Source: an uncultured Candidatus Binatia bacterium
GTDB lineage: Bacteria > Desulfobacterota > Binatia > UBA9968 > JAJDTQ01
Direction: 5' to 3'
Assembly: GCA_965214905.1 (NCBI GenBank)
Contig: OZ243984.1
Location: 3,504,628-3,568,627, forward strand
DNA length: 64,000 bases
Shown in pieces: positions 16,272 to 63,728 of this stretch. Under the pieces are notes generated by a model. That model was not told the origin of the DNA. It did no database searches and worked only from the letters and a program-made list of their open reading frames with translations. Position 1 is the first letter of the stretch. Every line of letters starts with the position of its first letter. The translations under genes and the position numbers were made by a program.

Positions 16272-16304
16272 CGAGCCGTGCCGGCCCGCAAGGCGATGCG
16301 GACA

Positions 16305-16332
16305 CGGAGCGGGTTTGGAACCCGCCCGTACA
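16305..16332. repeat. GGGTTTGGAACCCGCCCGTAC hairpin repeat copy
   Basis: cggagcgggtttggaacccgcccgtacact. Confidence 0.5.
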
Positions 16333-16622: not shown

Positions 16623-16775
16623 ACTCGGGATTCTTAGGTGATTCCAGCGAGAGGTTCAACCCGATCACGGTAACCTGTGTCGCCGGAAGACGGGTGTCGC
16701 GTCCTGAACAGACTGTGGAGAAATCTGCGGGTCCTTTTCGCCGTCGGCTGCGCCTCGCGTGGCATCGGCCACAGG

Positions 16776-16796
16776 GTCGGGTTTGAAACCCGCCCG
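16776..16796. repeat. GGGTTTGAAACCCGCCC hairpin repeat copy
   Basis: ggtcgggtttgaaacccgcccgcg. Confidence 0.5.
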
Positions 16797-16843
16797 CGCC
16801 CGCCGCCGGGCGTCAGCGGAATACAGGCTCGAAGGAGGAGGCT

Positions 16844-17835: not shown

Positions 17836-17868
17836 ACGCACGGGCGGGTTTGAAACCCGCCCCTACGG
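17836..17868. repeat. GCACGGGCGGGTTTGAAACCCGCCCCTACGGG hairpin repeat copy in the cyclase-creatininase spacer
   Basis: Direct read. Confidence 0.55.
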
Positions 17869-17879
17869 GAGGAGACGAA

Positions 17880-18695
17880 ATGGCGGCGCAACGGGGCTCG
17901 GTATGGCTTCAGGAACTGACCTGGGAGGATGTCGCGGCCTATCTCGAAGATTCCGACATCATCATCTGTCCGGTGGGCAGCACGGAAGAGCACGGGCCGG
18001 CCGGCCCGCTCGGACTTGACTGCCTCATCGCCATTGCCCTGGCGGAAGACGTGGCCCGCGCCACGGGGACGCTGTGCACGCCGCCGCTGTGGTTCGGCGA
18101 CTCGCCGCATCACCTGGGTTTTCCGGGAACCATCTCGCTTCGTACCGAGACCCTGATGGCGGTGATCCAGGATATGAGCCGAAGTCTGGCCAAACACGGG
18201 TTCCGCAAGATTCTCATCATCAACGGACACAAGGGCGCCAACCTCCCCGGCCTGCTGGCGGCTACCAAGAACTTGCGTGAGTACGAGATGCCCGAGGTCT
18301 TCTTCGCGGTCATCGACCCGGTGAAAATCGCCAAGAAGATCGCCAACGAGATCAAGGAAGCGAGAGAGCATCACAGCGGGGAGCTGGAGATCTCGGAGTG
18401 CTGGTACAAGTATCCCCACCTGGTCAAGCAAGAGAAGCTGACCACGTCGCAGGTCGACTTCGAGGAGAATTTCTCGCCATGGTCACACGGAGACCTCTTC
18501 TCCGCGCCGCACGAGGTGATCGATATTCCCTGGACCAGCACGGAACAGCGCCGTATCGTGCCTAGCGGCTCCTTCAGTCCTTCCATCAAGGCCTCGCCCG
18601 AGAAAGGCAAGGCGTACCACGACTACATGGTCGATCAGATCGTGCAATTCATCGGGTGGCTGCGGGATTACGAAGGACCCGTGGCCCAGGTTTGA
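17880..18695 (+). CDS. Creatininase family protein (creatinine amidohydrolase-like)
   Basis: ...IICPVGSTEEHGP...GFPGTISL...INGHKGA motifs. GGGAGGAG RBS before the ATG at 17880. Confidence 0.85.
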   Translation: MAAQRGSVWLQELTWEDVAAYLEDSDIIICPVGSTEEHGPAGPLGLDCLIAIALAEDVARATGTLCTPPLWFGDSPHHLGFPGTISLRTETLMAVIQDMSRSLAKHGFRKILIINGHKGANLPGLLAATKNLREYEMPEVFFAVIDPVKIAKKIANEIKEAREHHSGELEISECWYKYPHLVKQEKLTTSQVDFEENFSPWSHGDLFSAPHEVIDIPWTSTEQRRIVPSGSFSPSIKASPEKGKAYHDYMVDQIVQFIGWLRDYEGPVAQV

Positions 18696-18706
18696 CGCGC
18701 GTGGAC

Positions 18707-19900
18707 ATGGACGGTTCACAAAGCCCGGCCGTCACCGGGCTTCCGGCGAATACATGGCGCCTGCACGCCCGTGGCAGGGAGATCTACCTTGTCGGCACGG
18801 CGCACGTGTCGTCGGAGAGCATCGAAGACGTGCGCAACACCGTGGAGATGGTGGAGCCTGACGCCATTTGCGTGGAGCTGTGCCAAGCCCGGTACGAGGC
18901 ATTGACACGGCCTGATGCATGGCAGAAGACGGACGTCTTCAAGGTCATCAAGGAGGGCAAGGCGGCCCTGCTGCTGAGCCAGTTGATCATGTCGGCGTTC
19001 TACAAGCGCATGGGCGATCGGCTCGGGGTCCGGCCCGGCGCCGATATGCTGGAGGGCGTCAATCTGGCCCATGAGCGGGACGTGGAGCTGGTGCTGGCCG
19101 ACCGCGACGTCCAGGTGACGATGAAGAGAACCTGGCGGCATCTCGGCGTCTGGAACAAGCTGAAGCTGCTCTTCCTGCTCGTCACCAGCGCGCTGGTGGA
19201 GCCGGACATCGACAAGGACGCCGTGGACGATCTCAAGCGGCCGGACCGGTTGGGGGATGTCCTGATGGAATTCGCCGAAGCCTTTCCAGCCGTGAAGCAA
19301 TGCATTATCGACGAGCGAGACATCTACCTGGCGCAGCGGATCAGGGAGGCCGAAGGGCAGAAGGTCGTGGCGGTGGTGGGCGCGGGGCACGTGCCGGGAA
19401 TCGCTCGTGAGATTCACCGGGACCACCCGCTCGCTCCCCTCGAAACGGTGCCCGAGCGCTCGTACGGGTCCAGGAGCATCAAGTGGCTGGTGCCTTCGCT
19501 GATCGTGGCAATCATCGCGTATGGATTCTATCGCGCCGGCGCCGCTCATTCCCTGGAGTCCATCTCCATCTGGGTGCTGGTGAACGGCGTACTTGCGGCC
19601 GTTGGGGCGGCTCTGGCTCTGGGCCATCCGGTAACGGTGCTGGCCGCGTTCCTGGCGGCGCCCATCACCAGCCTCAACCCGACCATCGCCGCCGGATGGG
19701 TCTCGGGACTGGTTCAGGCCTGGGTCAAGAAGCCGACGGTGGCCGACCTCGAGGCAATGCCCGAGGTGGTGACGTCGTTTCCCAAGGGGCTTTGGCGGAA
19801 CACCGTCTCGCGTATACTGCTTGTGGTGGTATTCTCGAACCTGGGAAGCACCTTGGGAACGTTCATCGGCGGCAGTTGGATCGCCGCACGTTCGTTCTAG
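18707..19900 (+). CDS. TraB/GumN family protein
   Basis: EIYLVGTAHVSSESIEDVRNTVE...VELCQARY motif, and C-terminal TM segments. Confidence 0.8.
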   Translation: MDGSQSPAVTGLPANTWRLHARGREIYLVGTAHVSSESIEDVRNTVEMVEPDAICVELCQARYEALTRPDAWQKTDVFKVIKEGKAALLLSQLIMSAFYKRMGDRLGVRPGADMLEGVNLAHERDVELVLADRDVQVTMKRTWRHLGVWNKLKLLFLLVTSALVEPDIDKDAVDDLKRPDRLGDVLMEFAEAFPAVKQCIIDERDIYLAQRIREAEGQKVVAVVGAGHVPGIAREIHRDHPLAPLETVPERSYGSRSIKWLVPSLIVAIIAYGFYRAGAAHSLESISIWVLVNGVLAAVGAALALGHPVTVLAAFLAAPITSLNPTIAAGWVSGLVQAWVKKPTVADLEAMPEVVTSFPKGLWRNTVSRILLVVVFSNLGSTLGTFIGGSWIAARSF

Positions 19901-19952
19901 TGTTGCGTTTCATATTTGCGATGACTCATCACCGAGCCATTTGGACAGCCCT

Positions 19953-20100
19953 TCCGACTCCCTCTCCCTCTGGGAGAGGGTTGGGGTGAGGGTCCCCCGT
20001 GTGCGAGCCGCCGGTTGGGAGCGACCAGTAAAGGAGGGCAGGTTTGTTCGGGGCGCCCTCACCCGGCCTTCGGCCACCCTCTCCCAGAGGGAGAGGGGAG
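19953..20100. repeat. Inverted pair of roughly 33-bp palindromic units (CCCTCTCCCTCTGGGAGAGGG core) about 65 bp apart; a REP-like element
   Basis: 19953-19990 ccctctccctctgggagagggttggggtgaggg; 20058-20100 is its reverse complement plus an extra GGCCTTCGGCC hairpin. Confidence 0.7.
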
Positions 20101-20175
20101 TTATTCATCGCCGACCACTTCTTGCGGGAACGGGGTGAAGACATGGGACAGGGTCAACACATTTACGGAACGCGA

Positions 20176-20372
20176 CTCCAGGAGCCTGTATCGGCCGGTA
20201 GCGCGATGCAGGCAGGGGCGGGTTTCTACGGCGCAGGCTCCTAGGAGTCTGCGCCGTAGAACAGTTTTGGGCACATTATCATACCACATGTAGTGTTAAT
20301 GGAGTTACTATAACGCTATATATAGTGGCTAAGATTTCCTACGGCGCAGGCTCCTAGGAGCCTGTATCGGTT
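20176..20372. repeat. Composite REP/MITE-like element: a degenerate hairpin, then a perfect 34-bp palindrome CTACGGCGCAGGCTCCTAGGAG(T)CTGCGCCGTAG, then a 79-bp AT-rich insert (20259-20337), then a second half-palindrome
   Basis: This is a direct read of the sequence. The insert is about 33% GC against a roughly 65% background. Both flanks share the ...CTACGGCGCAGGCTCCTAGGAGCCTGTATCGG motif. Confidence 0.7.
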
Positions 20373-20413
20373 GATTCGTGTGAAGTATCCGTTTTCTCGA
20401 CAGGAGGGTACCC

Positions 20414-21139
20414 ATGGCAGAACCGGCAAACGTCAAGATCGGCTTCGTCACGCCGATATCGAGTTCCAGTCCCCACTTCGAGCCGTTCAAGGCGTTCATT
20501 CCCAAGGACGTGGAGATGGAATTCGAAGGTCTCGGAATCGTCCGCGGGTCCCTGGAGAGCCTCCGCGGCACCGGAGACAGGGTCGTGGAGACATCGGCCC
20601 GGCTGGCGCGGGAGCGCGGGTGGCAGGGCGTCATCGTCAGCGGGGCGCCGGTGGAAGTGCTCAACCCCGGACTGCTGGCGAGATTGAAGGACGCCGTGGA
20701 CGTGCCGGTGACGACGGCGCTGGAGTCCTGCGCCGAAGCGCTGAAGTCTCTTTCGACCCCCAGGGTGCTGCTGCTGACCCCGTTCGTCGAGTCCATGAAC
20801 AAGCTGATCCGCGACTATCTCGCCGACTGCGGCATCGAGGCAATCTCGCCCGCGGATACCTTCGACGACTATCGCGACGCGATGACGGTCGAACCCGACG
20901 AGGTGTACGCACTGACGGAAACGGCGTTCAAGGCGAACCCGGAGGTGCAGGCGATCTACTTCCAGGGAGCGGTGCTGGATCCGTTGAAGGTTCTGGACCG
21001 GATCGAGCACGATATGGCGAGACCGGTGGTGGCGAGCAATCCGGCCATGCTCTGGTTCATGCTCTCCAGGGTGGGTTTCTCGTGCAGCATTTCCGGCTAC
21101 GGAACGCTGTTGCGGGACTGGCCCGGCATCAAGAGCTGA
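20414..21139 (+). CDS. Asp/Glu/hydantoin racemase superfamily protein (arylmalonate decarboxylase / maleate isomerase-like)
   Basis: 241 aa with an Asp/Glu-racemase-like two-lobe pattern (...VLLLTPFVE..., ...IYFQGAVLD...). RBS is CAGGAGGG. Confidence 0.65.
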   Translation: MAEPANVKIGFVTPISSSSPHFEPFKAFIPKDVEMEFEGLGIVRGSLESLRGTGDRVVETSARLARERGWQGVIVSGAPVEVLNPGLLARLKDAVDVPVTTALESCAEALKSLSTPRVLLLTPFVESMNKLIRDYLADCGIEAISPADTFDDYRDAMTVEPDEVYALTETAFKANPEVQAIYFQGAVLDPLKVLDRIEHDMARPVVASNPAMLWFMLSRVGFSCSISGYGTLLRDWPGIKS

Positions 21140-21226: not shown

Positions 21227-24200
21227 TTACGCCCAGAATCTTGCGTAGCCCCAACCGAGGGCTCCGAGCCCCACCACCGCGCCGAAGATCCACTGCCAGT
21301 AGGGCTCCAGCACCAGCTTTCCCTCGATCTGCTGCTTGAGAGCGTCACGTTCAGCCGCCGCCACGGTCACCTGCCGGGTGAGTTCCTGTTTGTCTGCACC
21401 CAGGGCTGTTACCGCCTGTTCTTTTTCTGCGCGGGTCTGTTCGAGTGAGCGGGTGGTTTCATCGAGCTGTTGCTGCAGTCGAGCGGCAGTCTGGTCGTGG
21501 GCGGCAGCGAGGGAGGCGAGTTTTTCTGCGGCCTCCCGTTCCTTGGCGGCGAGGTCGGCTGCGGCCTGTTCTTTTTCTGCGCGGGTCTGTTCGAGTGAGC
21601 GGGTGGTTTCATCGAGCTGTTGCTGCAGTCGAGCGGCGGTCTGGTCGTGGGCGGCGGCGAGGGAGGCGAGTTTTTCTGCGGCCTCCCGTTCCTTGGCGGC
21701 GAGGTCGGCTGCGGCCTGTTCTTTTTCTGCGCGGGTCTGTTCGAGTGAGCGGGTGGTTTCATCGAGCTGTTGCTGCAGTCGAGCGGCGGTCTGGTCGTGG
21801 GCGGCGGCGAGGGAGGCGAGTTTTTCTGCGGCCTCCCGTTCCTTGGCGGCGAGGTCGGCTGCGGCCTGATCCTTTTCTGCGCGAGTTAGTTCGAGCGCAC
21901 GGGTGGTTTCATCGAGCTGTTGCTGCAGTCGAGCGGCGGTCTGGTCGTGGGCGGCGGCGAGGGAGGCGAGTTTTTCTGCGGCCTCCCGTTCTTTGGCGGC
22001 GAGGTCGGCTGTAGCCTGATCCTTTTCTGCGCGAGTTAGTTCGAGTGAGCGGGTGGTTTCATCGAGCTGTTGCTGCAGTCGAGCGGCGGTCTGGTCGTGG
22101 GCGGCGGCGAGGGAGGCGAGTTTTTCTGCGGCCTCCCGTTCTTTGGCGGCGAGGTCGGCTGTAGCCTGTTCTTTTTCGATCCGGTTTTGTTCAAGTGAGC
22201 GGGCTACCTCGGCCAAGCGCTTTTCAAGCTGTTCTATGGCGTTTTGATGCGCGGACGCCAGCGTGGCCATTTGCAATGCCAACTGTTGTTTGTCCGCGGT
22301 CAACGCGCCCATCGCCCGTTGTCGCTCGGCCTCCGTCTTCTCCAGGGAACGTTCCGTTTCGGCGAGTTGCTGCTCGAGTCGACGCCTGGCTGCATCGTCG
22401 GCAGGGTCTTGCGCCGCCATCTCCTGTTTGAGGGCGGCCAGTTCGGCCTGAGCCTGTGCCTTTTCGGTCCGGGCCTTCTCCAGTGATGTTGTGGTTTGAT
22501 CCAGTTGTTGTCGTAACTGTTGGACGGCCTGTTCATGGCCGGCCGTCAACTCCGTCAACTGTTGCGTGAGGTCCCGTTGGTCCGCGGTCAGGCCAGCGAG
22601 TGCCAGTTCCTTTTCGACCCGTGTCTGTGCCAGAGAACGTGTGGTCTGATCCAGTCGTTGCTGTAACTGTTGGACGGCCCGTTCATGGGCGGCCGTCAAC
22701 TCCGTCAACTGTTGCGTGAGATCCCGTTGACTGGCGGTGAGGGCAGCGAGTTCCTGGTCCTTTTGCGTCCGGACCTGTTCCAGAGAACCCGTGGCTTGCG
22801 CCAGTTGTTGCTGTAGCTGTTGGACGGCCTGCTCATGGGCAGCAGTGAGGGACGTGAGGCTTTGTGTGGTTTGTTTTTCCTTGGCGGCCAAGTCGTCCAG
22901 CGCATTTACGTTCTCGGCGCGGGATTGTTCGAGGGCGCGCGTGGTTTGGTCGAGTTGTTGCTGTAGCTGTTGGACGGCCTGATCATGGGCGGCGTTGAGA
23001 GACGCAATTTTTTGCACGGCCTCCTGTTCTTTGGCGGCGAGGTCGTCCAGGGTTTTTTCGTTTTCGGCGCGGGATTGTTCGAGGGAGCGGGTGGTTTGGC
23101 CGAGTTGTTGCTGTAGCTGTTGGACGGCCTGATCATGGGCGGCAGTGAGAGATGCGATTTTTTGAGCGGCGGCCTGTTCTTTGGCGGCGAGGTCGTCCAG
23201 GGTTTTTACGTTTTCGGCGCGGGACTGTTCGAGGGAGCGGGCGGTTTGGCCGAGTTGCTGCTGTAGCTGTTGGACGGCCTGATCATGGGCGGCAGTGAGA
23301 GATGCGATTTTTTGAGCGGCGGCCTGTTCTTTGGCGGCGAGGTCGTCCCGGGTTTTTACGTTTTCGGCGCGGGACTGTTCGAGGGAGCGGGTGGTTTGGC
23401 CGAGTTGTCGCTGTAGCTGTTGAACGGCCTGATCATGGGCGGCAGTGAGGGAGGCAATTTTTTGAGCGGCGGCCTGCTCTTTGGCGGCGAGGTCGTCCCG
23501 GGTTTTTTCATTTTCGGCGCGAGACTGTTCGAGGGAGCGGGTGGTTTGGCCGAGTTGCTGCCGTAGCTGTTGGACGGCCTGGTCGTGGGCGGCGTTGAGG
23601 GAGGCGACCTTCCGGGCGGCTTCCTCCTCCCCGGCGGCGAGGTCGTCCAGGGTTTTTTCGTTTTCGGCGCGGGATTGTTCGAGGGAGCGCGTCACCTGTG
23701 ACAACTGCTGCTCCAGTCGAGCCAGAGACGTTTTCTGGGTAGCGACTTCGGCCTCCAGGGACTGCCTGAGTGCGTTCAGCCGGTCGGTTTCGGTGCTCAT
23801 CTCTGTGATGGCACGGTCCTGCTGTGCGACCTGGGCAGCCAGCCCTTCCACTTGTGCGCTCAGTTCGTCCCGCTTGCGCACGAGTGCGGCGAAGTCGTCC
23901 TCCAGCGCGGTCTTGGCCGTGGTCAGAAGCGCGTTCTGCTGCACCAGAGAATCTCTCAGACTGGCCAGCTCCCGAGTCCTCGCGTTCAAGTCCAGCACGG
24001 TGGACGTTCTCTGGTCGAGCTGTACGGTGAGTTCATCGACGGTTCCGAGCGTGCTGTCCCTCTCGGCCGTCAAAGCGGCGACTCTCCGCCGGTACCGGTC
24101 CGCCGTGCGGCGTCCCTCGTCAATGACAGCGCTCATTTCCTGTCCGACCTGGGCCAGGGACGCCGTCAACTGGTTGATCTGCCGTTGGGCGTCCGCGAGC

Positions 24201-24445
24201 TCCCGCCCCCTCGACTCGATCAACTCCTCGGATCGGTTTGCGTCTTGCGTAAGCTGATCGACTCTGGCTTCGAGCGCGGTGACCTCCTGGCCTCGTTGCC
24301 GGAGGTCTTGCGTGAGGGCGGCGTTTGCCGCCTCGACGCTTTGCTTTTCGCGGTTCAGTTGCTCATGTTCTTCGACCGAGACGCATGAGGCGAGGGACAC
24401 GAATAGTGCGCCCAGAAGGCAAAGGGTTTTGGTGTGGTGCATCAT
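21227..24445 (-). CDS. Giant coiled-coil repeat protein (about 1070 aa). It has an N-terminal lipoprotein signal (…LFVSLASC) and a C-terminal hydrophobic anchor (…YWQWIFGAVVGLGALGWGYARFWA).
   Basis: The start MMHHTKTLCLLGALFVSLASC carries the lipobox LASC. The central roughly 750 aa are 50-aa heptad-rich repeats (…AAKEREAAEKLASLAAAHDQTAARLQQQLDETTRSLEQTRAEKEQAAADL…). Confidence 0.8.
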   Translation of the reverse strand: MMHHTKTLCLLGALFVSLASCVSVEEHEQLNREKQSVEAANAALTQDLRQRGQEVTALEARVDQLTQDANRSEELIESRGRELADAQRQINQLTASLAQVGQEMSAVIDEGRRTADRYRRRVAALTAERDSTLGTVDELTVQLDQRTSTVLDLNARTRELASLRDSLVQQNALLTTAKTALEDDFAALVRKRDELSAQVEGLAAQVAQQDRAITEMSTETDRLNALRQSLEAEVATQKTSLARLEQQLSQVTRSLEQSRAENEKTLDDLAAGEEEAARKVASLNAAHDQAVQQLRQQLGQTTRSLEQSRAENEKTRDDLAAKEQAAAQKIASLTAAHDQAVQQLQRQLGQTTRSLEQSRAENVKTRDDLAAKEQAAAQKIASLTAAHDQAVQQLQQQLGQTARSLEQSRAENVKTLDDLAAKEQAAAQKIASLTAAHDQAVQQLQQQLGQTTRSLEQSRAENEKTLDDLAAKEQEAVQKIASLNAAHDQAVQQLQQQLDQTTRALEQSRAENVNALDDLAAKEKQTTQSLTSLTAAHEQAVQQLQQQLAQATGSLEQVRTQKDQELAALTASQRDLTQQLTELTAAHERAVQQLQQRLDQTTRSLAQTRVEKELALAGLTADQRDLTQQLTELTAGHEQAVQQLRQQLDQTTTSLEKARTEKAQAQAELAALKQEMAAQDPADDAARRRLEQQLAETERSLEKTEAERQRAMGALTADKQQLALQMATLASAHQNAIEQLEKRLAEVARSLEQNRIEKEQATADLAAKEREAAEKLASLAAAHDQTAARLQQQLDETTRSLELTRAEKDQATADLAAKEREAAEKLASLAAAHDQTAARLQQQLDETTRALELTRAEKDQAAADLAAKEREAAEKLASLAAAHDQTAARLQQQLDETTRSLEQTRAEKEQAAADLAAKEREAAEKLASLAAAHDQTAARLQQQLDETTRSLEQTRAEKEQAAADLAAKEREAAEKLASLAAAHDQTAARLQQQLDETTRSLEQTRAEKEQAVTALGADKQELTRQVTVAAAERDALKQQIEGKLVLEPYWQWIFGAVVGLGALGWGYARFWA
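21380..23700. repeat. Tandem array of about 15 copies of a 150-bp unit inside the coiled-coil gene. Several copies are identical (for example 21481-21630, 21631-21780 and 21781-21930).
   Basis: Seen directly. Lines 21541-21600 and 21691-21750 are identical, and the period is 150 bp, which equals 50 aa. Confidence 0.85.
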
Positions 24446-24651
24446 ACCGTTGGTTCCGTTTATGGGCGGTTTCGCGACGCATGTAGTGGCGCGCGCCGCA
24501 AACACGCCGATGTTACAAAGTGTCAAGTACCTAGCAGACTTGGGCGGCAACAAGCAACGCCAGAACGTCCAACGACCTGTTTCCACACGGCGGGAGCGGG
24601 TCGGAAGCCCCCTCGCGCGGGCGTTCCGCGTGACCGGCCAGGACCTTCCCA

Positions 24652-25827
24652 TTAGATGACCTGTCGGCCGCGTAGCTCTTCGATGGCGCCCGGGGCGTAC
24701 CCCAGGGCTTGCAGGATTTCGTCGGTATTCTCACCGAGCATCGGCGGAGGCGTCGGAGTCTCCGGCGGCGTGCGGCTCATGTTGACGCCGCTGCCCACCA
24801 GCTTCACCTTCCCCATCGTCGGGTGCTCCACTTCGATGGGGAAGCCGTACTGCCGCACCTGCGGATCGTTGAACACGTCCTCGAGGTTGTTCAACGGGGT
24901 GGAGGGCACGTCGTGCTCTTCAAGCTTGCGCAGCCACACGTCGCGCGAGTCCCGGCCAAAGATGACCTGCAGTTCCTCTTCCAGCAGGTCGTGGTTGTCG
25001 GTGCGGCCCTTCTTGTCCGCGAATCGTGCATCTTCGGCCCATTCAGGCCTCCCGACGACTTCCAGCAGGCCGAGCCAGAACTTGGTGGGCGAGGAAAGGT
25101 GTACCACGAAGGGTTTGCCGTCCCGGTCGACGAATGCAAAGACGCCGGCGGTGCGGGTGCGGTCGGCCCGGCCGGGCACCACGCCGGTCTCGAAGAAACG
25201 GGCGCAGTTCTCCGCGGTGAACGACACCGACGCCCGCAGCAGGGACGTTTCGATGATCTGTCCCTCTCCGGTCATCATCCGGTTCACCAGCGCCGCCAGC
25301 ACGCCGTAGCACGCGTAGACCCCGGTGAGGTGGTCGGACAGGGATATGCCCATGCCCTTGGGTTGGTCGGGATCGGTGAGCAGGCTCAGCAACCCGCTCA
25401 TTCCCTGGCCCACGGTATCGAAGCCGGGCCGGTCACGATACGGTCCTTCCTGGCCGAAGCCGGAGATGGAGCAGTAGATGATCCTGGGGTTCAACGGGCG
25501 AATCGAGTGGTAATCCAGGCCCCGGCGGGCCATGACGCCCGGGCGGTGGTTCTCGATCAGCACGTCGGCCTCGGCCGCCAGCCGGCGGCAGATGTCCCGG
25601 CCCTCCTCGCTGCGGATGTCCAGGGTGATGCTCTTCTTGTTCCGGTTCAGGCTGCAGAAGGTGGCCGAATAGAGTCGCTCGCCCCAGCCCCGGAACGGAT
25701 CGCCGTGTTCCCGTTCCTCGACCTTGATGACTTCGGCGCCGAGGTCGGCCATGAGCATGGAAGCGAACGGGCCGGTGACGTAGCTGGCCAGCTCCAGGAT
25801 CCTTATGCCTTCGAGTGTTCCCGCCAT
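24652..25827 (-). CDS. CoA transferase, family III (CaiB/BaiF-like)
   Basis: The N-terminus LEGIRILELASYVTGPFASMLMADLGAEVIKVE is the family III CoA-transferase signature. Confidence 0.9.
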   Translation of the reverse strand: MAGTLEGIRILELASYVTGPFASMLMADLGAEVIKVEEREHGDPFRGWGERLYSATFCSLNRNKKSITLDIRSEEGRDICRRLAAEADVLIENHRPGVMARRGLDYHSIRPLNPRIIYCSISGFGQEGPYRDRPGFDTVGQGMSGLLSLLTDPDQPKGMGISLSDHLTGVYACYGVLAALVNRMMTGEGQIIETSLLRASVSFTAENCARFFETGVVPGRADRTRTAGVFAFVDRDGKPFVVHLSSPTKFWLGLLEVVGRPEWAEDARFADKKGRTDNHDLLEEELQVIFGRDSRDVWLRKLEEHDVPSTPLNNLEDVFNDPQVRQYGFPIEVEHPTMGKVKLVGSGVNMSRTPPETPTPPPMLGENTDEILQALGYAPGAIEELRGRQVI

Positions 25828-46920: not shown

Positions 46921-46992
46921 AAGATTGAAAATAGCGGCCTGATCGGCCGAGCGCAACAGGGTTCGACGGCCCGCCGAAAAGATCGCTGGCAG

Positions 46993-47088
46993 CCGGTATC
47001 GGCCGGTAGCGCGATGCGGGCACGGGCGGGTTTGAAACCCGACCCTGCACCGGGTGTCCTGGTTCTACGGCTCAGGCTCCTGGCGCCG
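46993..47088. repeat. Composite REP/MITE-like element (TATCGGCCGGTAGCGCGATGCGGGCACGGGCGGGTTTGAAACCCG...GTTCTACGGCTCAGGCTCCTGG)
   Basis: It shares over 80% of its positions with the copies at 52962-53056 and 20176-20258. Confidence 0.7.
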
Positions 47089-52934: not shown

Positions 52935-52961
52935 TGGGGCAGGCCCGTATCCGGGCCAGGA

Positions 52962-53056
52962 GCCGGTATCGGGCGGTAGCGCGACGCGGGCACGGACGGG
53001 ATTGAAACCCGCCCGTGCATCGGGCGTCCGAGTTCTACGGCGCAGGCTGCTACGAT
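52962..53056. repeat. Composite REP/MITE-like element (CAGGAGCCGGTATCGGGCGGTAGCGCGACGCGGGCACGGACGGGATTGAAACCCGCCCGTGC...GTTCTACGGCGCAGGCTGCTACG)
   Basis: It lies between convergent gene ends. Confidence 0.7.
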
Positions 53057-57555: not shown

Positions 57556-57632
57556 CTACGGGGTTGCAGGGGCGGGTTTCCAACCCGCCCCTGCAACCCG
57601 TTCATCCCCGTTCTACGGCGCCGGCTCCTAGT
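57556..57632. repeat. REP/MITE-like element with a perfect 38-bp palindrome (GGGTTGCAGGGGCGGGTTTCCAACCCGCCCCTGCAACCC) followed by GTTCTACGGCGCCGGCTCCTAG
   Basis: Seen directly. Located between the rng stop and the phoU promoter region. Confidence 0.75.
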
Positions 57633-60018: not shown

Positions 60019-60085
60019 GCATTTCCCGCGATTCAACATGTTGTGGTGTGGAGGCCACTCCGTCACTTCATGTTGTGACTTTCCC

Positions 60086-60170: not shown

Positions 60171-63100
60171 ATGCGTCTGAAGGCTCTGGAAGTTTCCGGG
60201 TTCAAGTCTTTCGCGGGGAAGACCGTCCTGAATTTCACCTCCGATATCACCGGGATCGTGGGACCCAACGGTTGCGGGAAGTCCAACGTCGTGGATGCGC
60301 TCCAATGGGCCATGGGCGAGCAGAGTGTCCGTTATCTCCGTGGCCGGACCATGGAGGACGTCATTTTCAGCGGCAGCGAGCAGCTCGCCCCCATCGGGAT
60401 GGCCGAGGTCACCGCGCTGCTGGACAATTCCGATGGCAGCGCGCCGGCCGACTACGGCGCCTTCGGTGAAATCGCCGTCACCCGGCGGCTCTTTCGCTCG
60501 GGCGAGTCGGAGTATTCCATCAACCGGGTGACTTGCCGTTTGCGCGACATTGTCGAGCTCTTCATGGGGACGGGAGTCGGTAACAAGTCGTACTCCATCA
60601 TCGGGCAGGGGCGCGTCGCGGAGTTGGTGAACTCGAAGCCTGAAGACCGGCGCCGCATCATTGAAGAGGCCGCGGGCACGAGCCGGTTCAAGAGCCGCCG
60701 GCAGGCGGCGGAAAGGAAGATGGAGCGAACGCGGCAGAATCTTCTGCGCGTCGATGACATCGTCCGCGAGGTAGAGCGGCAGCTTCACAAGATCGAACTG
60801 CAGGCAAAGAAGGCCGAACGGTACCGGAACCTTCAGGAACAATTGCAGGACAAGGAGCTTCGTTGGGCCGCCGTCCGCAGGCTGGAGTGGGAGCGAGAGA
60901 TCGCCGAGCGCGGCGCCGAAGTGGATGCCGTCGAAGATCGGATTGCTTCGCTCATGGCCACGGTGCGGGCGAGAGAGGCGGAGTGCGAGCGCAGTCGAGT
61001 CGCCCTGCTCGACATGGACGGCGAGATCGGATCATCGCAGGAGCGGCTCTACCAGCTCAGGCTGGAGGTCAAGGCGGAAGAGCAGAGAATAGGGTTCTTC
61101 GAGCGTGAAGAGGACGAACGGAAGGATTCCGTCGCAAGGGCCAAGGCCGATGCCGTCCATACCGGCGCGCGGCTGGAAACGGTGGCGAGCGAGATAGCGG
61201 ATCTGGGCAAGGCGAGCGAAGACTTCGCCCGACTCTCCCTTTTCGAAGCGGAACGGGTGACGCGTATCGAGGTGGACGTGGCGGGTTTGCGGACCCGTAT
61301 CGAGACGCTTCAGGCGACGGTCGAGCGTGACAGAGATCTCTTGGTGGATCGTGTCGGAGCCCACTCGCAACTCACCAATACCCGACGGGCTCATGAAGAG
61401 CGTCTGGGGCATTCGAGAGCCGGATCGGCGGAGAAGGAGAGTCGGCGAAAGGGTGTCGAGCAGACGCTGGAAGCCCTGGACGGCCGGCGCGCCAGGGAGT
61501 CCATGGAGCTCGAGCAGTGCGGGACGCGCGTGGCCGAGCTGGGTGAGCGTCTGCGTCGGGCCGACACGGAGTCGGAGAGCGTCAAGGCGGCCCTGGCCGA
61601 GCACGAGGAGGTCCTGGCCCGACTCAAGGACGAGTTGCACGAAGCGCGTTCCGGCCTGAGCTCCCTTGAAACATTGCAAAAGAACTTCGAGGGCTATCAG
61701 GAGGGTGTCCGGGCCGTCATGCTCAAGCATCAAAGCAACGGCCGGTCGGACGGGATTTGCGGCGTGGTCGCCGATTTTATCGAAGCCCCCGAAAACGTGG
61801 AGAAGGCATTGACGGCGGTGCTGGGCGATCGCCTTCAATACGTGATCGTGCAGGGACACCAGGAGGGGGTGGAGGCCATCGAGTATCTGAAGCGCGAATC
61901 GGCGGGTCGGAGCGGATTCATTCCGCGCCGTCTCGAACGCCGGTGCGGCGCCCCGCCGGTTACGCTTTCGGGTCCGGACGTCATCGCCCCCCTGCTCGGG
62001 CTCGTGGAGGTTAAAGAAGGTTACCGGGAGGTGGCCGACTATCTGTTGGGCGACGTGGCGGTGGTCCGGGATCTGGAATCGGGACTGGGGCTTTGGCGCT
62101 CCAACGGATTCAGTCATTCGTTGGTGACGCTGGACGGCGAGGTCATCGATCCCGTGGGGATGGTCACCGGAGGGAGTGCGGAAAGCCTGGAAGGCAATCC
62201 GATCTCGCGGCGCCGCAGGATCAAGGAGCTGAAGCAGCAGGTCGCCACCGGCGAGAAGCAGGTCCGGGATCAGGAAGAACGGGTCGTCGCGACAAGGTCC
62301 GAGTTGCAGCGAATGGAGTCCGAACGCCAGCGGTTGACGGATGAGGCCCGGGACCTGGCGGTCGCCAAGGTTCAACTCGAGCACGAGTTGTCGGCGACGG
62401 ACCAGGCCATTGCCCGTTCGCGCCGGGACTTGGCAACCATCGGCCAGGAGTTGCGTAACCTGTCGGACGAGATCGGCGGCCTGACCAACTCCATCGCGGC
62501 GTGTGATACGGCCATCGCCGGGAGCGAGCGTGAACGGGCGGCGTTGGAGTCGCGCGTGCGGGAGCTCCAGGGCTCATGCCGGCAAACCGAGGAAGAGTTG
62601 CGGACCGCGGAATCACGGCTTACCGACTCCCGCATACGGGCGGCGGCGGCGAAGGAGAAGGAGGAGAACTCCAGGTCGAATCTCGAGAATCGGGTCAGAT
62701 TACGCGCCGAGCTCGCATCGCAGCTCCAGGAGCGCGAGGCGCGGATCGCGGAAACGGCTCGCAGGACTCACGAGATGAAGGTAGCCCGCGAGCAGTCGGA
62801 AGCGCGGATTCAGGCGTTGCGGGTGCAGCTCCGGGATGCGGAAGGTGAAGTGGCGTCGCGGCAGCAGGAGTACCGCGGGCTCTCGACCCGGATCCGTGAG
62901 GTGGAAGAGGCCATTCACCTCATTCGTCCCGACATCGACGCCAGACAACAGGACAAGGTGCGGCTTCTGGGGTTGCAGAACGAGAAGGTTACGGCACTGC
63001 GTTACCTGTGCGACGAGATGCGGGAGAAGTACGCCGTGGAATTGGCGGAGTTCACACCGGAAGCCGACGTCGAGGCCTCGGTCGCCGGTGACCTGGCCGA

Positions 63101-63728
63101 AGAGGTTGCGGAGTTGCGGGCCCGGCTGCAACGGATGGGTGAGGTGAATCTCGCGGCCATCGGCGAGTTCGAAGAGCTCACCGAACGGAACCGTTACCTG
63201 AGCGGGCAACGAGACGATCTGGAACGGTCCATGGCCGATCTGCAACAGACCATCACCAAGCTGAATCGAATCTGCCGGCTGCGGTTCAAGGAGAGCTTCG
63301 AAAAGATCAACCAGGAGTTTCAGGCGATCTTCCCCAGACTGTTCAACGGCGGGAAGGCGTTGTTGACGCTGACCGACGAGAACGACTATCTGGAAACCGG
63401 GGTCGACATCGTTGCACAGCCGCCCGGCAAGACGCTTAGATCCATCGGCCTGCTGTCGGGAGGCGAGATGGCCCTGACGGCGGTGAGTCTTCTGTTCGCG
63501 ATCTTCCTGACCAAACCGAGCCCGTTCTGTTTTCTCGACGAGGTGGATGCGCCGCTCGACGACGCGAACATCGATCGGTTCATCGATGTGGTAAAGGAGA
63601 TGACCCGCTTGTCGCAGTTCATGATCATCACCCACAACAAGAAGACGATGCTGGCGGCCGACATGCTCTACGGTATCACCATGGAAGATCCAGGGGTTTC
63701 CAAGGTCGTATCCGTAGAGATGGTCTAG
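60171..63728 (+). CDS. smc: Chromosome segregation protein SMC
   Basis: The N-terminus contains the Walker A motif (GPNGCGKSN). There are long coiled coils and a hinge. The C-terminus has the signature motif (LSGGE) and Walker B (LDEVDAPLDD). Confidence 0.95.
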   Translation: MRLKALEVSGFKSFAGKTVLNFTSDITGIVGPNGCGKSNVVDALQWAMGEQSVRYLRGRTMEDVIFSGSEQLAPIGMAEVTALLDNSDGSAPADYGAFGEIAVTRRLFRSGESEYSINRVTCRLRDIVELFMGTGVGNKSYSIIGQGRVAELVNSKPEDRRRIIEEAAGTSRFKSRRQAAERKMERTRQNLLRVDDIVREVERQLHKIELQAKKAERYRNLQEQLQDKELRWAAVRRLEWEREIAERGAEVDAVEDRIASLMATVRAREAECERSRVALLDMDGEIGSSQERLYQLRLEVKAEEQRIGFFEREEDERKDSVARAKADAVHTGARLETVASEIADLGKASEDFARLSLFEAERVTRIEVDVAGLRTRIETLQATVERDRDLLVDRVGAHSQLTNTRRAHEERLGHSRAGSAEKESRRKGVEQTLEALDGRRARESMELEQCGTRVAELGERLRRADTESESVKAALAEHEEVLARLKDELHEARSGLSSLETLQKNFEGYQEGVRAVMLKHQSNGRSDGICGVVADFIEAPENVEKALTAVLGDRLQYVIVQGHQEGVEAIEYLKRESAGRSGFIPRRLERRCGAPPVTLSGPDVIAPLLGLVEVKEGYREVADYLLGDVAVVRDLESGLGLWRSNGFSHSLVTLDGEVIDPVGMVTGGSAESLEGNPISRRRRIKELKQQVATGEKQVRDQEERVVATRSELQRMESERQRLTDEARDLAVAKVQLEHELSATDQAIARSRRDLATIGQELRNLSDEIGGLTNSIAACDTAIAGSERERAALESRVRELQGSCRQTEEELRTAESRLTDSRIRAAAAKEKEENSRSNLENRVRLRAELASQLQEREARIAETARRTHEMKVAREQSEARIQALRVQLRDAEGEVASRQQEYRGLSTRIREVEEAIHLIRPDIDARQQDKVRLLGLQNEKVTALRYLCDEMREKYAVELAEFTPEADVEASVAGDLAEEVAELRARLQRMGEVNLAAIGEFEELTERNRYLSGQRDDLERSMADLQQTITKLNRICRLRFKESFEKINQEFQAIFPRLFNGGKALLTLTDENDYLETGVDIVAQPPGKTLRSIGLLSGGEMALTAVSLLFAIFLTKPSPFCFLDEVDAPLDDANIDRFIDVVKEMTRLSQFMIITHNKKTMLAADMLYGITMEDPGVSKVVSVEMV

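Follow-up and report, generated by a model that had tools for sequence, protein, structure and literature searches.

The locus and its AT-rich segment

In the intergenic region between two co-directional genes of an uncultured bacterium, a short AT-rich segment is bracketed by repeats, and the question was raised of what this segment is, how it came to lie there and whether it serves the gene that follows. The whole stretch of DNA analysed, 64 kb in length, is referred to below as the window. The segment (79 bp, 20260-20338) has a GC content of 34.2% against 63.2% for the window; it is the lowest in GC within the window and the only stretch of 40% GC or less in the 64 kb. It ends 75 nt before the ATG (20414) of a gene of the Asp/Glu racemase superfamily. 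In these respects an earlier sequence-only reading of the DNA was confirmed.

The upstream gene (18656-19900, plus strand) belongs to the TraB/PrgY/GumN family (Pfam PF01963, E=1.1e-34); its stop codon TAG lies at 19898-19900, its start codon is uncertain, and an orthologue occupies the same position in all relatives. The downstream gene (20414-21139, plus strand) encodes an arylmalonate-decarboxylase or maleate-isomerase-like protein, here called Amdase (Pfam PF17645, E=6.8e-21), with homologues at 80-92% identity. The 513 bp between the two genes (19901-20413) consist largely of repeat elements, and comparison of the gene pair with relatives showed the region to be lineage-specific. After 20370 the sequence is unique; the ribosome-binding site GGAGGG, which the Amdase-like gene keeps, and the ATG follow.

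Two perfect direct copies of the 22-nt sequence CTACGGCGCAGGCTCCTAGGAG, at 20226-20247 and 20339-20360, bracket the 79-mer (chance expectation 0.00). They had been described earlier as two copies of a perfect palindrome, which was only partly right: one palindrome of 34-38 bp is present, neither perfect nor repeated. It spans 20226-20259, can be extended to 20224-20261 and carries one mismatch (19-nt arms, 95% complementary). The downstream "copy" is the 22-nt left half only, running into AGGAGCCTGTATCGG and thereby forming an 18-bp palindrome at 20347-20364.

A separate palindromic element of about 150 bp was observed further upstream in the same intergenic region (19950-20100, CCCTCTCCCTCTGGGAGAGGG ... 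CCCTCTCCCAGAGGGAGAGGG). Its 22-nt arms are 100% complementary and 94 nt apart; it was present in none of the relatives and had no second full copy in the window.

Structure of the probable inserted element

Based on the comparisons described below, it was concluded with good confidence that 20245-20353 is a MITE, a non-autonomous derivative of an IS1182-family (ISKpn6-like) IS. It is 109 bp long, or 117 bp with both flanking CTAGs, and non-coding, being crossed by spurious ORFs only and holding no transposase ORF. The left terminal inverted repeat GAGTCTGCGCCGTAG (20245-20259, plus strand) is the counterpart of the IRR-type end in the parent IS and the right one, CTACGGCGCAGGCTC (20339-20353, plus strand), that of the IRL-type end, and the two 15-bp ends match each other at 14 of 15 positions. 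As single-stranded DNA or RNA the element is predicted to form a perfect terminal stem of 19 bp. The AT-rich 79 bp (20260-20338, plus strand), initially regarded as the insert, form its core. The proposal that a tiny mobile element had been inserted in a nested manner thus held, since a complete MITE was found, with homologues elsewhere, with IS1182-family ends and with ten related loci lacking it. The mobile unit extends beyond the 79 bp: it comprises the whole of 20245-20353, so that one palindrome arm and the arm downstream belong to it as well.

The MITE is flanked by CTAG at 20241-20244 and at 20354-20357, both read from the sequence and taken as the left and right copies of a putative target; the left one is common to the MITE and to the right end of a resident GC-rich copy (El1, 20182-20240, plus strand; alignment A2, repeat families D8-D10). 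El1 consists of a left end GAGCCTGTATCGG (20182-20194), a GC-rich body (20195-20225) and a right end CTACGGCGCAGGCTC (20226-20240), with CCAG (20178-20181, read from the sequence) and CTAG at its sides. It measures 59 bp, about 33 bp having been lost from within, and does not carry the AT-rich segment as an insert, as had been supposed; the complete MITE abuts it, lying beside the GC-rich copy and not inside it.

On the other side, the right CTAG is followed by a solo 13-nt fragment (20358-20370, plus strand) identical to the El1 left end, so that a perfect 15-nt direct repeat of AGGAGCCTGTATCGG occurs at 20180 and 20356. This fragment may be what is left of a third element, or it may have arisen by local duplication, and a similar solo end fragment also follows the MITE copy of L016. 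Origins of 20358-20370 from a single event were considered, namely a long target duplication, an insertion that struck the left CTAG of El1, and a tandem duplication with a later deletion; they were set aside, as all of them need extra steps.

Homologous elements in other genomes

No second copy of the 79-mer was detected in the window or in the loci fetched from relatives, and none of 185,579 species-representative genomes contained an exact match to a 22-mer from the AT-rich core. The species-representative genomes were also searched by architecture (CTGCGCCGTAG-N52-82-CTACGGCGCAG), which returned 13 loci. Eight of these, in Vicinamibacterales, Bryobacterales and Terriglobia MAGs (Acidobacteriota), were elements of the same length, 116-117 bp including the CTAGs.

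The eight homologues aligned with the window element across all 117 columns with a mean column identity of 80%. Their cores are visibly related (42-49% GC) and share the conserved blocks AAC.GTTTTGGG, AC..ATGTAGTGG, ATAT.GTGG and ATTTCC. A leave-one-out nhmmer profile of the whole element gave the window element a score of 77.1 bits (E=5.6e-23). When the profile was restricted to the core and built without the window sequence, its top match in the window was 20260-20338, end to end, with 18.3 bits and E=7.4e-5. Comparison of the core with single Acidobacteriota copies was marginal (63-70% identity, E 0.03-0.26), so that the homology of the core is secure only through the profile together with the identical length and the shared ends.

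Among the homologues, three that share one Terriglobia MAG were 100% identical and two that share one Vicinamibacterales chromosome were 90% identical, in each case with unrelated flanks, which as a sequence pattern reads as the signature of transposition. Elsewhere, too, the copies stand in unrelated contexts and in both orientations. CTAG flanks all nine MITE copies (two with one mismatch) as well as all seven full-length IS copies that were read. The 64-kb window holds one copy of the element with the AT-rich core. The end pattern had no match in viral contigs, and the 117-bp element had none in PLSDB plasmids.

Arrays and nested fragments of the terminal repeat of the MITE were observed at three loci in Acidobacteriota MAGs (L009:1-230, L017:7650-7990 and L012:7372-7460). 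They include tandem CTAGCTAG junctions and ends placed around GC-rich cores, the terminal repeat being common to several different short elements.

IS1182-family elements with the same ends

A single-end pattern was used to search metagenomes, and ten contigs matched, nine of them with one and the same sequence. In eight of these nine the match lay no more than about 250 nt from the end of the contig, where it would be expected if a multi-copy IS interrupts the assembly; in the ninth (L027) it was internal to a contig of 76.9 kb.

One metagenome contig contained a complete element (L031:79-1614), 1,536 bp long, with CTAG on both sides, the ends GAGTCTGCGCGGTAG and CTACGGCGCAGACTC, and an ORF of 445 aa. 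The ORF matched the NCBIfam model NF033551, "IS1182 family transposase", with 357 bits against a cut-off of 270, and also Pfam DDE_Tnp_1, DUF772 and DDE_Tnp_1_6. The left end of the MITE is identical to the IRR of this IS at 15 of 15 positions, and when CTAG and the subterminal AACAGTTTTG are included the identity extends over 29 nt (CTAGGAGTCTGCGCCGTAGAACAGTTTTG). At the DNA level the L031 element matched ISKpn6 and an IS on a Halomonas plasmid; both carry the annotation IS1182 family, and their ends read CTAG-GAG(C/T)CTGCGCGGCAG ... CTGCCGCGCAGACTC-CTAG.

A transposase 73% identical to that of L031 occurred four times in one assembled genome of 3.8 Mb (L036-L039, sample ERZ25072999). The four IS1182-family copies, each of 1.5 kb, are identical to one another, have unrelated flanks and read CTAG-GAGCCTGCGCCGTAG...GACTC-CTAG. 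The reverse complement of the right MITE end, GAGCCTGCGCCGTAG, matched the IRL of these copies at 15 of 15 positions and that of ISKpn6 at 13 of 15. This pattern points to an IS that is active now or was so recently, and its ends are the same as those of the window MITE.

The core was compared with the full-length elements (L031, L036-L039 and ISKpn6), and only about 10 bases beyond each end matched. Derivation of the whole core from the subterminal regions of these IS was consequently dropped, and the direct parent IS of the MITE lineage was not among them. No gene for an IS1182-family transposase was detected in the 64-kb window by tblastn.

Comparison with related loci

Neither of the two flanking proteins had an exact counterpart on record. 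Homologues of the Amdase-like protein at 88-92% identity were found on long contigs, and 11 related loci were fetched by way of this neighbouring protein, ten of which were read at the TraB-Amdase junction. The lineage is known from MAGs only, and some members of the homologue cluster are labelled "Deltaproteobacteria bacterium". The ten loci share the gene order amidohydrolase, small ORF, cyclase, creatininase, TraB and Amdase. The gap between the last two genes is 25-28 bp in seven of them (L001, L002, L004, L005, L006, L008 and L035), 69 bp in L003 and 88 bp in L034, while in L007 it measures about 184-185 bp and is filled by a different, unrelated MITE.

The window MITE is thus polymorphic for presence and absence, being lacking at the orthologous intergenic site in all ten related loci read. 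These loci serve as the comparison with an empty site that had been suggested earlier. Since the 513-bp region is absent from the ten relatives, it is lineage-specific as a whole and the AT-rich piece is not an ancestral spacer. The sequence-only reading had held that a segment unique, untranscribed and present in all relatives would be just a degenerate spacer; the data contradicted the first and the last of these conditions.

The unrelated MITE of L007 deserves mention in its own right. It is about 160 bp long, has AT-rich terminal repeats of about 30 bp (TGTCCTGTCTCATAAATACCGTTATGAA...) and was observed at different intergenic sites in three relatives (L007:3815-3975, L008:1777-1937 and L003:4767-4929), the copies being 83-91% identical and bordered by CTAG at one or both ends. 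In L007 it occupies the exact place of the repeat cluster of the window, and a 31-nt exact piece of its core is present in the window at 16722-16752.

The GC-rich repeat family

El1 was aligned with copies at 46981, 52951 and 57540 (alignment A2). Full copies lie at 46988-47081 (plus strand, right end CTACGGCTCAGGCTC, of the same kind as that of El1) and at 52958-53051 (plus strand, right end CTACGGCGCAGGCTG), and a partial copy at about 57566-57631/57634 (plus strand) comprises the hairpin, the right end CTACGGCGCCGGCTC and CTAG. The full copies are about 94 bp long with 69% and 70% GC, respectively, in agreement with the earlier description of the family as GC-rich.

The right end of this family is the terminal repeat of the MITE, while its left end is a diverged version, of which an intermediate form is visible in L002. 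Given the shared right end, the "REP-like" family is best interpreted as a second lineage of MITE-like elements, in which IS1182-type ends enclose a GC hairpin. The hairpin itself, GGGCGGGTTTGAAACCCGCCC, occurs at 16303-16329, 16771-16797, 17838-17864, 47020-47046, 52990-53016 and 57566-57592. At 16303, 16771 and 17838 it stands alone. Being scattered with IS1182-type ends in some places and without them in others, this core of the GC-rich family is an independent repeat unit. The relabelling of these repeats as carriers of IS1182 ends bears on repeat annotation in this uncultured lineage.

Proposed mechanism of insertion

We proposed that the MITE, having kept the two 15-bp ends, a few subterminal bases and the 79-bp AT-rich core but no transposase gene, would be mobilised in trans. 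An IS1182-family DDE transposase encoded elsewhere would bind both ends, excise or copy the element and insert it at CTAG. After insertion CTAG would stand on both sides, either by a 4-bp duplication or by duplication of TA within CTAG; the sequence fits either. CTAG is palindromic and invariant, so it could also belong to the end of the element and not to a duplicated target. The single CTAG shared with each neighbour would fit target duplication better.

The CTAG struck at this locus was presumably that at the right end of El1, the resident GC-rich element, which has the same end type. The long palindrome is thus two transposon ends placed head to head across a shared CTAG, and the supposed second copy downstream is the right end of the MITE itself. 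Each insertion would recreate a CTAG beside a transposase-binding end, so elements could pile up end to end. Four of the nine copies (in the window, L009, L016 and L017) abut another end-like sequence across CTAG, the stacking in the last three having arisen independently, and this recurrence suggests that a CTAG beside an existing end may be a favoured target.

The element is most likely a passive and fairly recent insertion, the latter because its ends match at 14 of 15 positions and neither CTAG is altered. Along with the other repeats it would have widened a gap of about 28 bp to 513 bp within a probable operon. Effects on expression through read-through, processing or a new promoter are possible.

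Alternative explanations

A REP/REPIN-type element mobilised by a RAYT (Y1 HUH transposase), with the AT-rich segment swapped in between GTAG and CTAC by cleavage and rejoining, was regarded as very improbable. The inner arms do end in ...CCGTAG and CTACGG..., GTAG...CTAC encloses a long GC hairpin in the GC-rich family, the family is dense (four copies in 64 kb), and the predicted folding is strong (-117 kcal/mol, z = -8.5). The arms are, however, identical at 15 of 15 positions to the ends of elements that encode an IS1182-family DDE transposase, including the CTAG flank and 10 subterminal bases, whereas REPs have no such DDE IS partner. In addition, a tblastn search of the window with an E. 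coli RAYT sequence gave no hit below E=5, a weak test that covers 64 kb. An origin from another DDE family, as a MITE of an IS630/Tc1-type or IS5-type element, would fit the CTAG on both sides of every copy; IS630 duplicates TA within CTAG and IS5 duplicates YTAR. It can scarcely be credited, given that every full-length element found with GAGYCTGCGCCGTAG-type ends encodes an IS1182-family transposase, and that NF033551 gave 357 bits, whereas the best IS5 model reached 54 bits and so fell short of its own cut-off. Equally little credit was given to a local rearrangement, in which palindrome-driven template switching or duplication caught filler DNA and left a unique, degenerate spacer. The 79-mer is unique in the window and the fetched relatives, its 22-mer has no exact match in the genome collection, and the perfect 15-nt repeat at 20180 and 20356 suggests that some local duplication took place. 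This reading is contradicted by the alignment of the segment, without gaps, end to end and at the same length, with the cores of eight elements from another phylum, which are themselves multi-copy and flanked by the same ends and CTAG.

The remaining alternative was that the core is functional cargo, a promoter for the racemase-family gene or a small RNA gene, and was kept for that reason; the sequence-only reading had raised it, and we consider it unlikely. In its favour, the core stands out as AT-rich against a genome of 63% GC and has TATAAC, TATATA and TATAGT strings 75-110 nt upstream of the ATG, its blocks conserved across phyla include ACATGTAGTG and ATATATAGTG, 33 bp apart, and with the gap widened to 513 bp the downstream gene might need a promoter of its own. 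Yet neither a sigma-70-like promoter nor an intrinsic terminator was predicted on either strand. An Rfam scan of 19500-20900 gave no match at the gathering score; the search extended to E up to 10 assigned no family, the best match overlapping the element being LPR10 (17 bits, E=5.7, where the gathering score is 69). RNAalifold applied to the nine copies returned the terminal stem and a weak, G-U-rich inner helix only, with compensatory change in 0 of 31 predicted pairs and a covariation term of -0.11 kcal/mol, and the structured-RNA reading was dropped for want of compensatory changes. Copies in other genomes stand in unrelated contexts and in both orientations. Finally, the transposase-sense direction, judged against the IS, points away from the racemase-family gene, since the IRR-type end is on the left and any relic of a transposase promoter would face the other way. 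As cargo, a small RNA or promoter is thus unsupported, though one may exist as a side effect. We therefore retained the MITE derived from an IS1182-family element as the explanation of the locus.

Relation to known elements

MITEs derived from the IS1182 family are already known. MITEPye1 was described in Paracoccus yeei (PMC11578231), and the ISMac2-derived MITEs of Methanosarcina acetivorans are related to the same family (PMC3852290). Like the window element, these are small, non-coding, intergenic, able to form long stem-loops and presumed to be mobilised in trans; they have terminal inverted repeats of 18-26 bp matching IS1182-family elements, and 4-bp direct repeats. Further published precedents for 4-bp direct repeats or a palindromic 4-bp target are the IS1182-family elements ISPse1 (PMC3281130) and ISPsy36, the latter with the target GGCC (PMC8027508).

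The window element differs from the published MITEs, known to us by description, in its sequence, and at 109 bp (CTAGs not counted) it is shorter than the archaeal (ISMac2-derived) MITEs, which measure 160-169 bp. It is thus a new sequence family of a known kind. Its family is further set apart by standing always between CTAGs, by occurring in at least two distant lineages and by stacking against other ends; the spread across distant lineages and the strict CTAG context with end-to-end stacking are mildly notable.

ISKpn6, an IS1182-family element that is part of Tn4401 next to blaKPC, has the ends CTAG-GAGCCTGCGCGGCAG...CTGCCGCGCAGACTC-CTAG, identical to the MITE ends at 12-13 of 15 positions. 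ISKpn6 and its relatives are autonomous elements of 1.54 kb encoding a DDE transposase of 439-445 aa, whereas the window element has no ORF. REPs and REPINs resemble it in being short, abundant, hairpin-forming intergenic repeats with a GTAG tetranucleotide, often between co-directional genes, but they have neither the terminal repeats of a DDE IS nor a target duplication, while the ends found here are those of IS1182. The Correia elements (CREE/NEMIS) of Neisseria offer no more than a working analogy. These MITEs, about 100-150 bp in length, have terminal repeats and a TA-containing target, sit between genes and can be co-transcribed as hairpins. They are unrelated in sequence and transposase family, and have documented promoters, IHF sites and RNase III processing of their own.

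An odd palindrome with an insert has thereby become a textbook end-to-end junction of transposons, with clean empty sites in relatives. A MITE family of about 117 bp with ISKpn6-like ends, always between CTAGs, is added in Acidobacteriota and in a MAG lineage of the "Deltaproteobacteria bacterium" type. The result is of use to catalogues of IS and MITEs and helps to understand assembly breaks and operon disruption, and no concept is changed by it.

The box pair of the core and related sites

The core contains a phased pair of boxes, ACATGTAGTG and ATATATAGTG, about 33 bp apart, with the consensus C-W-ACATGT-W-GTG and ATRTWGTGG. The pair is conserved across phyla, being kept between Acidobacteriota and the window lineage. 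A similar arrangement was found at 60034-60079, upstream of an smc-like gene (60171-63728), where the boxes CAACATGTTGTGG and CACTTCATGTTGTG lie 32 bp apart and are followed by TTGACA. These boxes are near-invariant in four related loci (alignment A3; one base differs in L044), while the spacer varies. Two 12-mers of the smc-upstream pair are identical to the MITE copy of L015; the overall likeness of the smc-upstream region to the MITE core was not significant (profile E=0.066, pairwise E=0.26), and the box region had no match in Rfam.

The motif CATGTWGTG has four occurrences in the window, where 0.29 would be expected; the fourth of them, at 24480, lies upstream of a repeat-protein gene. 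That the 79-bp core is a conserved functional module and not inert filler was considered doubtful, with a small chance of being right. If it were so, either the MITE would spread a site bound by a protein of the host or by one associated with the transposase, or the regulatory region of smc would be an old, exapted copy.

The repeat-protein gene was noted as a minor feature of the window. Its ORF of 1,141 aa (21227-24652, minus strand) is made up of 150-nt (50-aa) tandem repeats, some of them 96-99% identical at the DNA level, and in relatives the length of the orthologous ORF ranges from about 290 to more than 1,580 aa. Translation probably starts near 24445 (MMHHTKTLCLLGALFVSLASC, lipoprotein-like), in which case 24446-24650 would be the upstream region of the gene.
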